Source: a virus
Virus genome (UHGV): UHGV-0079566
Direction: 5' to 3' (one strand)
Length of the DNA: 34,746 nucleotides
Shown: positions 23,517 to 25,718 of the stretch, one piece after another
Numbering within the stretch: the first letter of the stretch is position 1
Layout of the letters: each line of letters starts with the position of its first letter
The notes under the pieces: generated by a model
The model's input: the letters and a program-made list of their open reading frames with translations, nothing else
The model's database searches: none
Told to the model about the DNA's origin: nothing
Position numbers and translations under genes: made by a program

Positions 23517-24548
23517 ATGTCCAATTTACTGACCGTACACCAAAATTTGCCTGCATTACCGGTCGATGCAACGAGTGATGAGGTTCGCAAGAATCTGATG
23601 GACATGTTCAGGGATCGCCAGGCGTTTTCTGAGCATACCTGGAAAATGCTTCTGTCCGTTTGCCGGTCGTGGGCGACATGGTGCAAGTTGAATAACCGGA
23701 AGTGGTTTCCCGCAGAACCTGAAGATGTTCGCGATTATCTTCTATATCTTCAGGCGCGCGGTCTGGCAGTGAAAACTATCCAGCAACATTTGGGCCAGCT
23801 AAATATGCTTCATCGTCGGTCCGGTCTGCCACGACCAAGTGACAGCAATGCTGTTTCACTGGTCATGCGACGGATCCGAAAAGAAAACGTTGATGCCGGT
23901 GAGCGTGCAAAACAGGCGCTGGCGTTCGAACGCACTGATTTCGACCAGGTTCGTTCACTCATGGAAAATAGCGATCGCTGCCAGGATATACGTAATCTGG
24001 CATTTCTGGGGATTGCTTATAACACCCTGTTACGTATAGCCGAAATTTCCAGGATCAGGGTTAAAGATATCTCACGTACTGACGGTGGGAGAATGTTAAT
24101 CCATATTGGCAGAACGAAAACGCTGGTTAGCACCGCTGGTGTAGAGAAGGCACTTAGCCTGGGGGTAACTAAACTGGTTGAGCGATGGATTTCTGTCTCT
24201 GGTGTAGCTGATGATCCGAATAACTACCTGTTTTGCCGCGTCAGAAAAAATGGTGTTGCCGCGCCATCATCCACCAGCCAGCTATCAACTCGCGCCCTGG
24301 AAGGGATTTTTGAAGCAACTCACCGATTGATTTACGGGGCAAAAGATGACTCTGGTCAGCGATACCTGGCCTGGTCTGGACACAGTGCCCGTGTCGGAGC
24401 CGCGCGAGATATGGCCCGCGCCGGAGTTTCAATACCGGAGATCATGCAAGCTGGTGGCTGGACCAACGTAAATATTGTCATGAACTATATCCGTAACCTG
24501 GATAGTGAAACGGGGGCAATGGTGCGCCTGCTGGAAGATGGCGATTAG
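23517..24548 (+). CDS. cre: Cre tyrosine recombinase (343 aa)
   Basis: Protein MSNLLTVHQNLPALPVDATSDEVRKNLMDMF... recognised as Cre, with loxP upstream. Confidence 0.97.
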   Translation: MSNLLTVHQNLPALPVDATSDEVRKNLMDMFRDRQAFSEHTWKMLLSVCRSWATWCKLNNRKWFPAEPEDVRDYLLYLQARGLAVKTIQQHLGQLNMLHRRSGLPRPSDSNAVSLVMRRIRKENVDAGERAKQALAFERTDFDQVRSLMENSDRCQDIRNLAFLGIAYNTLLRIAEISRIRVKDISRTDGGRMLIHIGRTKTLVSTAGVEKALSLGVTKLVERWISVSGVADDPNNYLFCRVRKNGVAAPSSTSQLSTRALEGIFEATHRLIYGAKDDSGQRYLAWSGHSARVGAARDMARAGVSIPEIMQAGGWTNVNIVMNYIRNLDSETGAMVRLLEDGD

Positions 24549-24565: not shown

Positions 24566-24582
24566 ATTGCTCTAATTATTTG
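24566..24582 (+). promoter_or_regulatory. C1-operator-like site ATTGCTCTAATTATTTG just downstream of cre
   Basis: Read directly. Confidence 0.6.
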
Positions 24583-24598
24583 ATATTTATGGTGACAC

Positions 24599-24910
24599 AT
24601 GCGGAAGGATTTCAAAATAGACGGAAAATATGTGGTGCTGTCTGTAAGCTCTCAAATTCAGTCACCATCTGTCATTGTCACCGTAAAGTTGAGCGATAGG
24701 ATGCCTGATATCGACTCGATATCTGTTGCGTTCCCCGTTAAAAGCATGCGGAGTGCTGAACATTTTGTGATGAATGCAACGGAGGAGGAAGCGCGGCGCG
24801 GGCTTACTAGAGTGATGGGGGAATTTGGCGAACTCCTGGGTAAGGTAAACAATGCCCTTTCAATCAGTTCAGCAAGGTCCAAAGCGTTAACAGCTTCCAT
24901 GATGAAATAA
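24599..24910 (+). CDS. Hypothetical protein (103 aa) in the cra (cre-associated) position
   Basis: ORF track; GGTGA Shine-Dalgarno; identity with P1 cra not verifiable from memory. Confidence 0.4.
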   Translation: MRKDFKIDGKYVVLSVSSQIQSPSVIVTVKLSDRMPDIDSISVAFPVKSMRSAEHFVMNATEEEARRGLTRVMGEFGELLGKVNNALSISSARSKALTASMMK

Positions 24911-24936
24911 AAAAAAGCCTGGCAAGGAGCCAGGCT
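24909..24936 (-). terminator. Hairpin (8-bp stem agcctggc / gccaggct, loop aagga) with an 8-nt U-run only on the minus strand
   Basis: Plus strand reads A8 + stem; the minus strand reads stem + T8. Confidence 0.5.
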
Positions 24937-25042
24937 GCACAAAAGAGCGGGTTTGTATTCCGCATCCAATCAATCAAGAAGGAGTATAGCACACAGGTAC
25001 TGAAGTGAAAAAATGTGATTCGCGATAAACAAAATATCTACC

Positions 25043-25072
25043 ATTGCTCTAATTGATTGCTATAATTTAGCC
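25043..25072 (+). promoter_or_regulatory. Tandem C1-operator-like sites (ATTGCTCTAATTGATTG and ATTGCTATAATTTAGCC), the second containing a -10 TATAAT; candidate ref promoter/operator
   Basis: Read directly; C1/Bof control of ref is established for P1. Confidence 0.6.
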
Positions 25073-25126
25073 GCAGTTTTTGTCAACTACGAAGACGTTG
25101 CCATTACTTCACTCCTTGACATCATT

Positions 25127-25152
25127 GGCGGCCATTAGGCCGCCTTTTTTTT
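25127..25152 (+). terminator. Terminator-like hairpin in the ref leader (7-bp GC stem ggcggcc / ggccgcc, loop atta, T8) ending 5 nt before the ref ATG
   Basis: Perfect inverted repeat plus tttttttt read directly. Confidence 0.65.
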
Positions 25153-25157
25153 GCCAT

Positions 25158-25718
25158 ATGAAAACAATCGAACAAAAACTTGAACAGCGCCGCGAGTGGC
25201 AGAAGGCAGCCAGAGAACGAGCGATCGCTCGGCAACGGGAAAAGTTGGCTGACCCCGCCTGGCGAGAATCGCAATATCAGAAAATGCGGGATTCTATCGA
25301 CCGCCGTATCGCTAAACAGAAAGAGCGCCCACCAGCCAGCAAAACGCGGAAAAGTGCGGTAAAAATAAAATCTCGTGGCTTGAAGGGGCGAACACCGACG
25401 GCGGAGGAACGGACCATCGCCAATGCTCTTGGCACTCTCCCCTGCATTGCCTGCTACATGCATGGAGTAATATCTGAAGAGGTGTCTCTGCACCATATCT
25501 CCGGTCGTACCGCGCCGGGTTGTCACAAAAAGCAATTGCCCCTTTGTAGATGGCACCACCAGCATGCTGCACCGGCTGAAGTAAGAGCAAAATACCCCTG
25601 GCTGGTCCCTGTTCATGCCGATGGTGTGGTTGGAGGCAAGAAAGAATTCACCTTGCTGAACAAGTCAGAGATGGAGTTACTGGCTGACGCCTATGAGATG
25701 GCAAACATCATGCACTAA
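25158..25718 (+). CDS. ref: Ref, RecA-dependent HNH-family nuclease (186 aa)
   Basis: Protein MKTIEQKLEQRREWQKAARERA... with C-terminal Cys/His HNH-like region; 186 aa as for P1 Ref. Confidence 0.85.
   Translation: MKTIEQKLEQRREWQKAARERAIARQREKLADPAWRESQYQKMRDSIDRRIAKQKERPPASKTRKSAVKIKSRGLKGRTPTAEERTIANALGTLPCIACYMHGVISEEVSLHHISGRTAPGCHKKQLPLCRWHHQHAAPAEVRAKYPWLVPVHADGVVGGKKEFTLLNKSEMELLADAYEMANIMH

Follow-up and report, generated by a model that had tools for sequence, protein, structure and literature searches.

A conserved terminator-like hairpin in the leader of the ref nuclease gene of P1-family phage-plasmids

The window examined here is the whole 34,746-nucleotide stretch of virus genome UHGV-0079566, a P1-family (Punavirus) element that is phiW39/SJ46-like. 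Positions 24900–25300 share 100% identity with phage phiW39 and Salmonella phage SJ46 and 97% identity with P1, and this region is present in 694 plasmid records. Locally, cre (23517–24548) is followed by c8 (24599–24910) and then ref (25158–25718), and the genes cre, c8, ref, and mat are found in the same order in the window and in P1. P1 features were placed by mapping the curated P1 record (AF234172, L001) onto the window. The features in and around the ref leader are listed below with the evidence used to assign them.

25023–25029, plus strand: H-NS motif CGATAAA (Ronayne et al. 2016, PMC4713147, section 8; sequence)
25043–25059, plus strand: C1 operator Oref, ATTGCTCTAATTGATTG, matching the 17-bp consensus at 14 of 17 positions (P1 annotation, L001 1044–1060)
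25056–25072, plus strand: overlapping weak operator-like repeat ATTGCTATAATTTAGCC, 11 of 17 positions, containing the −10 (consensus match)
25058–25066, plus strand: extended −10 of P2ref, TGCTATAAT (P1 annotation, L001 1062–1067; sequence)
25073–25126, plus strand: ref leader 5' of the hairpin (leader alignment, tallies, and Salmonella/Klebsiella-type homology)
25097–25103, plus strand: GUUGCCA, candidate weak antiterminator strand (constrained and nascent folds)
25098–25125, plus strand: predicted second promoter P1ref (P1 annotation, L001 1099–1126; promoter scan, 9 of 12 with TG)
25127–25144, plus strand: predicted terminator hairpin GGCGGCC-ATTA-GGCCGCC (terminator scan, folding, covariation, and shuffles)
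25145–25152, plus strand: T8 tract (U8 in RNA), directly 3' of the stem (sequence)
25153–25157, plus strand: spacer GCCAT, without a Shine-Dalgarno sequence (GACCAT or ACCTT in variants)
25158–25718, plus strand: ref, encoding a RecA-dependent HNH nuclease of 186 amino acids (ORF list, PF16786 homologs, and P1 annotation)

Rightward transcription toward ref can be traced to two annotated promoters. The −10 hexamer of P2ref, TATAAT (25061–25066), has TG in front of it and is thus an extended −10, and the promoter is annotated in P1 as C1-controlled; from the spacing, its transcription start is predicted at approximately 25072–25074. Section 8 of Ronayne et al. (2016, PMC4713147) reports CGATAAA as an H-NS binding motif for ref's 5' regulatory region. 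The reading made from the sequence alone (hereafter, the sequence-only reading) had placed the hairpin downstream of tandem C1 operators, which is overstated. One good site is present, consistent with the single 'monovalent' C1 operator, Oref, of the curated P1 record, and its core, ATTGCTCTAAT, is invariant save in L003 and L050, two loci in which the operator carries a deletion or has been rearranged. The second site is the weak overlapping repeat, which is not annotated as an operator in P1, has a core that varies among relatives (ATTG[C/T/A]T), and is absent from Salmonella-type leaders. The sequence-only reading had also missed P1ref, the second predicted promoter annotated in the P1 record, which consists of a −35 element TTGCCA (25098–25103) and a TG-extended −10 element CATCAT (25120–25125) abutting the stem. 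Because this −10 ends two bases before the stem, transcripts from P1ref would have their 5' ends within the 5' arm and would be unable to fold into the hairpin, a potential bypass that depends on a predicted promoter. P1ref is not evident in Salmonella-type leaders. A further operator-like site, ATTGCTCTAATTATTTG, matches the C1 consensus at 14 of 17 positions and lies just upstream of c8 (24566–24582). The equivalent P1 sequence, ATTGCTATAATTATTTG, reads as an extended −10 (TGCTATAAT) and not as an operator, and one base may switch this site between promoter-like and operator-like forms among P1 relatives.

The leader upstream of the hairpin contains three conserved blocks, GTCAACTACGAAGAC (25082–25096), GCCATTAC (25100–25107), and CTCCTTGAC (25112–25120). 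In the same stretch, two −35-consensus hexamers spaced 30 bp apart, TGTCAA (25081–25086) and TTGACA (25116–25121), are perfect inverted copies of each other, and a 6-bp helix is possible between them at the RNA level. Salmonella-type leaders retain the homologous blocks, CTGTCA and TGAC, the 3' one of which overlaps the terminator stem. The leader segment CACTCCTT (25110–25117) resembles the 3' end of 16S rRNA (CACCUCCUU), and CTCC[CT]T is conserved in both the P1 and the Salmonella/Klebsiella leader families, although ref has no Shine-Dalgarno sequence to be masked. A hairpin in the 5' part of the leader (25073–25101) was present in the minimum free energy fold and was rejected, as the changes that E. 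albertii-type leaders carry in its 5' half have no compensating partners.

The ref start itself has essentially no Shine-Dalgarno sequence. The best anti-Shine-Dalgarno pairing within the 20 nt upstream of the ATG is −1.5 kcal/mol, compared with a median of −4.7 kcal/mol for the 23 long ORFs in the window, which bears out the earlier statement that ref lacks a Shine-Dalgarno sequence. The first codons of the gene are A-rich. An N-terminally extended Ref beginning at an in-frame TTG at 25080 was considered as well and was rejected, since close relatives do not keep the frame, which is interrupted by differences in T-tract length (T7–T10) and by GCCAT/GACCAT and GTTGCC/GTGCC indels.

Immediately upstream of this start lies the hairpin. 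The perfect 7-bp GC stem, 4-nt loop, and run of eight U's described from the letters alone were recovered by inspection of the sequence, by a terminator scan, and by folding. The 5' arm GGCGGCC (25127–25133), the loop ATTA (25134–25137), and the 3' arm GGCCGCC (25138–25144) make a stem in which 7 of 7 pairs are GC, and the T8 tract is followed by the five bases of the spacer and then the ATG (25158–25160), the distance originally given. Folded alone, the hairpin has a free energy of −16.2 kcal/mol (z = −3.99), and 0 of 200 shuffles were equally stable; when the full leader was folded, its pairing probability was 0.99. Hairpins were categorized as top quality if they had at least 7 perfect pairs, at least 6 of them GC, and at least 7 T within the next 8 bases. 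This search of both strands of the 34.7 kb window resulted in two such hairpins, compared with 0.001 expected per dinucleotide shuffle: the one in the ref leader and one on the minus strand at 24935–24917. The ref hairpin has the features expected of an intrinsic terminator, namely a GC stem within about 5–14 bp, a loop within 3–8 nt, and an uninterrupted U-tract straight after the stem, and it lies approximately 60 nt downstream of the annotated P2ref −10, with cre-c8 upstream on the same strand. The terminator scan returned no other plus-strand terminator-like site between cre and 25127, making this the first plus-strand terminator downstream of cre and c8, a point that the sequence-only reading had not raised. 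No terminator is annotated at this position in the curated P1 genome record, and no transcript-end data for RNA 3' ends at the U-tract were found in the accessible literature. By its structure, the hairpin with its U8 tract qualifies as a genuine Rho-independent terminator, which would be expected to stop transcription in vivo.

The minus-strand hairpin, AGCCTGGC-TCCTT-GCCAGGCT followed by T8 (24936–24916), lies 190 bp from the ref hairpin and points in the opposite direction; it is close to c8, with its T-run on the minus strand. A promoter-like site on that strand (TTTTCA-17-TATACT with TG, 25011–24983) would yield a predicted RNA of about 68 nt (24976 to 24909) containing two hairpins (−23.2 kcal/mol, z −3.1). 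In one relative (L287) the stems of this RNA are retained and the loops differ, and nothing is annotated in P1 on the minus strand of 24909–25011. This region could give rise to a small divergent transcript or act as a backstop to leftward transcription into c8 and cre.

Conservation of the ref hairpin was then considered across elements that carry ref. A comparison with the P1 ref leader had been proposed as a check, and the hairpin, T8 tract, spacer, and ATG are all identical in P1 (AF234172). An intact stem is present in 46 of the 49 P1-type leaders; two of the other three are C-to-T variants in which G·U pairs remain, and the third has an A·C mismatch and comes from a ref-less plasmid from which the operator and −10 are also missing. 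The loop occurs as ATTA, ATCA, GAAA, or TAAA. The T-tract of ref-carrying elements ranges from T7 to T9 among the 49 P1-type leaders, with T10 also found in a wider tally, and is T6 in ref-less relatives. Beyond the P1 type, ref homologs at 61–68% identity show the same layout with different stem sequences, giving three lineages.

P1 type (window and L001): GGCGGCC-ATTA-GGCCGCC, T8
Klebsiella/Salmonella type (L246, L252–L255, and L336): GACGGTC-TTCG/TACG-GACCGTC, T7–8
Pantoea alvi type (L332, L333, and L339): GCCGCC-TCCG-GGCGGC, T7

All three lineages have a leader of 45–60 nt, a GC stem of 6–7 bp, a 4-nt loop, and a T7–8 tract, and in all three the hairpin lies downstream of a ATTGCTCTAAT-type C1 operator overlapping a −10, with a weak or absent ref Shine-Dalgarno sequence. 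A pair count over 16 distinct sequences found 98.2% of the cells paired and both sides changed in 3 of the 7 pairs; 0 of 500 shuffles reached this score, and sliding the partner caused the pairing to collapse. These counts point to structure rather than sequence being under selection, within few independent lineages. Measured from the conserved CTCCYTGAC block, the P1 hairpin is about 6 nt farther away than the Salmonella-type hairpin, and given this offset and the small number of independent events, the stems may have been exchanged as units and not compensated base by base. A C1-type operator and a leader terminator are both missing from more distant ref genes (L247, L249, L251, L334, and L340–L342), which restricts this architecture to C1-controlled lineages. 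The comparative support provided by one layout in three diverged lineages with paired changes, all read from sequence, is the new contribution of this analysis.

The hairpin is also found where ref is missing. In ref-less plasmids of E. albertii and some of E. coli (L002, L003, and L005, and also L062 and L076 from IMG/VR), similarity to the window breaks off precisely where the T6 behind the hairpin ends; a convergent icd-ant (antirepressor) operon takes the place of ref, and its ant stop codon lies 5 nt from the stem.

L002, 2001–3482: icd-ant replacement region
L003, 2001–3411: icd-ant replacement region
L005, 2001–3462: icd-ant replacement region

The cassette of promoter, leader, and terminator persists in these plasmids, with the operator and −10 mostly intact. 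An end of homology right after the T-tract is expected for a terminator at a module boundary, and the hairpin appears to behave as such a boundary, as terminators often do. In the icd-ant plasmids, the two convergent units would both have the hairpin at their 3' ends. A different remnant is seen in pPK8277-98kb (L004 2001–2104), where the C1 operator and promoter are retained with the initial ~35 nt of leader; the hairpin and ref are both missing, and the sequence diverges into unrelated cargo encoding an ester cyclase and a helix-turn-helix (HTH) regulator on the opposite strand. This type accounts for approximately 8% of evenly sampled plasmid matches, and because such remnants persist without function, the retention of leader parts is limited as evidence. 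In a single case (L003, NZ_CP058750.1, ~2040–2130), a mismatched stem GGCGACC accompanies a 13-bp deletion of the operator and −10 and the absence of ref, which would fit decay of the hairpin after loss of the promoter.

We consider the probable explanation of these observations to be that the production of a toxic nuclease is limited by a leaky intrinsic terminator acting alongside C1, H-NS, and a start poorly suited to translation. The terminator would serve as a leaky and probably constitutive attenuator and insulator in the ref leader, and every rightward transcript would have to cross it 5 nt before the ref start codon. The transcripts that arrive would come from P2ref, located ~55 nt upstream and repressed by C1 and H-NS, and from read-through of the constitutively expressed cre-c8 genes; since no other plus-strand terminator-like site lies from cre up to the hairpin, the leader hairpin would gate both. 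The majority would stop as a noncoding RNA of ~80 nt, and the minority that read through would be poorly translated, owing to the lack of a Shine-Dalgarno sequence at the start, where there is only a U-rich tract. In P1-type elements, the weak P1ref would initiate within the 5' arm and so escape termination. Combined with C1 repression, the net effect would be low Ref in lysogens and moderate, delayed Ref after induction.

Published observations on P1 are consistent with such an arrangement. Inactivation of C1 raises ref mRNA 73-fold, yet to a lower level and later than ssb, dmt, and kilA, and the ref mRNA peak falls later than that of other C1-controlled genes. H-NS is reported to bind upstream of ref as well. 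A 73-fold induction requires substantial read-through, so the terminator would be either leaky or overridden. Ref damages the host, sensitizes lysogens to ciprofloxacin, and lowers lysogenization 40-fold, the last of which provides a reason to limit Ref. If the explanation is correct, changing the U8 tract to UUCAUCAU would raise expression of a ref reporter several-fold. The suggestion in the sequence-only reading that attenuation is superimposed on C1 repression is, on comparative grounds, the best supported reading; no particular regulated or switching mechanism is supported.

In that regulated form, an 'attenuator-antiterminator' system, an alternative leader helix or a phage or host factor would disable the terminator, and ref would be expressed late after induction. 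The late ref mRNA peak agrees with this, as does the title of Windle et al. (1988, PMID 3170487). The leader can also form candidate alternative helices: in the nascent transcript GUUGCCA (25097–25103) can pair with UGGCGGC (25126–25132) before the 3' arm is made (ddG −7.7 kcal/mol), and in Salmonella-type leaders a conserved ACUGUCA can pair with UGACGGU, which overlaps the 5' arm (ddG −5.6 to −7.8 kcal/mol). These helices, however, fall short of the terminator by 4–8 kcal/mol, and individually none reaches significance, as they are matched by 3–17% of shuffled upstream sequences (12% for the GUUGCCA helix). They are lost in natural variants (L006, L287, L062, and L246, the first three of which lack the GUUGCCA helix), and the core helix UGUCA:UGAC never covaries and is broken in E. 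albertii-type leaders by an uncompensated C-to-A change. A sensor was sought in the form of a leader peptide, an aptamer, or a protein-binding site, and the leaders contained no conserved ORF; the Rfam scan returned no riboswitch or leader family above its gathering threshold. A leader peptide was rejected in P1-type leaders, which contain no ATG or GTG, and an MNPP* mini-ORF overlapping the stem is present only in L254, L255, and L336 and is absent from L246, L252, and L253. P1 is not known to have an N- or Q-like factor. We regard regulated antitermination, which the sequence by itself does not support, as unlikely.

The hairpin (−31 to −14) and U8 tract (−13 to −6) could alternatively be a translational element, in which they would form a ribosome loading site, such as a U-tract bound by protein S1 that substitutes for the Shine-Dalgarno sequence, and would not stop transcription. 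The weak or absent Shine-Dalgarno sequences in relatives, the A-rich first codons, and the position of the U-tract, which in P1-type elements is always directly upstream of the start, would all suit this role. It is difficult to reconcile with the Pantoea alvi-type leaders, where ~100 nt separate the hairpin and T7 from the annotated start, and with the ref-less relatives, which retain the hairpin and T6 with no gene downstream. A GC stem followed by U7–8 is moreover a specific signature of intrinsic termination. We therefore hold a translational role to be improbable.

A similarly small likelihood is assigned to the leader being a gene in its own right, with the C1-controlled promoter, conserved leader, and terminator producing a trans-acting small RNA (sRNA) of ~80 nt (25073 to ~25151). 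Relief of C1 repression would make this RNA abundant, its target would belong to the host or the phage, and ref would be a read-through passenger. The layout is typical of an sRNA gene, with a dedicated promoter followed by a conserved stretch without structure and a GC hairpin that ends in a U8 tail, and the predicted RNA from P2ref to T8 falls within the 50–300 nt size range of sRNAs. Sub-threshold Rfam matches to Hfq-type sRNA models span 25067–25159. An sRNA would also explain the conservation of the leader blocks between P1-type and Salmonella-type elements and the survival of the cassette without ref, where it adjoins the convergent icd-ant operon. The best Rfam scores are, however, 17–24 bits against gathering thresholds of 41–50 and mainly reflect the terminator. 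A search of 100 kb of the SJ46 genome for a target was made with a seed test, as RNAduplex comparison of the whole leader with that genome gave long, loop-ridden, uninformative duplexes; the best non-self complementarity was 12 nt, a length equaled or exceeded in 34% of shuffled leaders, and no phage target was found in it. The PK8277-type plasmids, with a promoter and ~35 nt of leader without the hairpin, indicate that remnants can persist without function, and the accessible P1 RNA-seq papers mention no such RNA, with those on P1vir containing nothing on the ref leader.

A chance palindrome or recombination scar without function, which the position of the hairpin at a mosaic junction in ref-less relatives might suggest, is effectively refuted by the pair-count and shuffle tests, given an expected frequency of 0.001 per window and a structure maintained over three stem sequences with only loops varying within families.

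A leaky leader terminator of the kind favored here has parallels in several known systems. The lambda pR'-tR' unit (6S RNA) likewise has a promoter followed closely by a strong terminator, so that a short RNA is the default product and the downstream genes need read-through. In lambda, antitermination is provided by the Q protein and a qut site, whereas no such factor or site is known or was detected here; the ref promoter, unlike pR', is repressor-controlled and has one gene downstream. The trp and pyrBI attenuators and riboswitch platforms resemble ref in that a terminator separates the promoter from the start codon and that an upstream helix incompatible with this terminator may form. In contrast to those classical attenuators, the ref leader has no conserved peptide and no detected ligand- or protein-binding domain, and its alternative helix is weak and unconserved. 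Small RNAs derived from 5' untranslated regions, such as SreA and SreB of Listeria, are likewise leaders cut short by termination that match an sRNA in size, carry a U-tail, and have conserved sequence before the terminator, whereas the ref leader RNA is predicted and its complementarity to the phage genome is not beyond chance. Within the same phage family, the c4 antisense RNA of the P1 and P7 immI region acts on icd-ant transcription, and there RNA-level control and premature termination after a C1-controlled promoter limit a dangerous gene. The c4 RNA acts through base-pairing and Rho-dependent polarity; the stop before ref differs in being an intrinsic terminator with no antisense partner found.

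The nearest precedent is at ref itself. The title of Windle, Laufer & Hays (J Bacteriol 170:4881, 1988; PMID 3170487) proposes control of ref by a promoter-operator and an attenuator-antiterminator. The gene and locus are the same, and the hairpin, T8 tract, and spacer of P1 are base-for-base identical to those of the window. M23246, the GenBank fragment that came out of this study, has its end at P1 position 2063, which corresponds to window position 25144, the last base of the stem. From the title, the end of this fragment, and the fact that the hairpin is the sole terminator-like structure between the promoter and the ATG, we infer that the 'attenuator' of 1988 is this hairpin. As attenuator control of ref had already been published, the hairpin is a confirmation and not a discovery; the principle was proposed in 1988, and the value of the present analysis lies in that confirmation and in the comparative support added to it.

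The tightness with which Ref is gated affects the fitness of P1 lysogens and phage-antibiotic synergy, and this gating is relevant to users of P1-derived vectors or of Ref as a programmable nuclease. The terminator is conserved among P1-like phage-plasmids from Escherichia, Salmonella, Klebsiella, and Pantoea, which points to selection for termination-based gating in the biology of ref.
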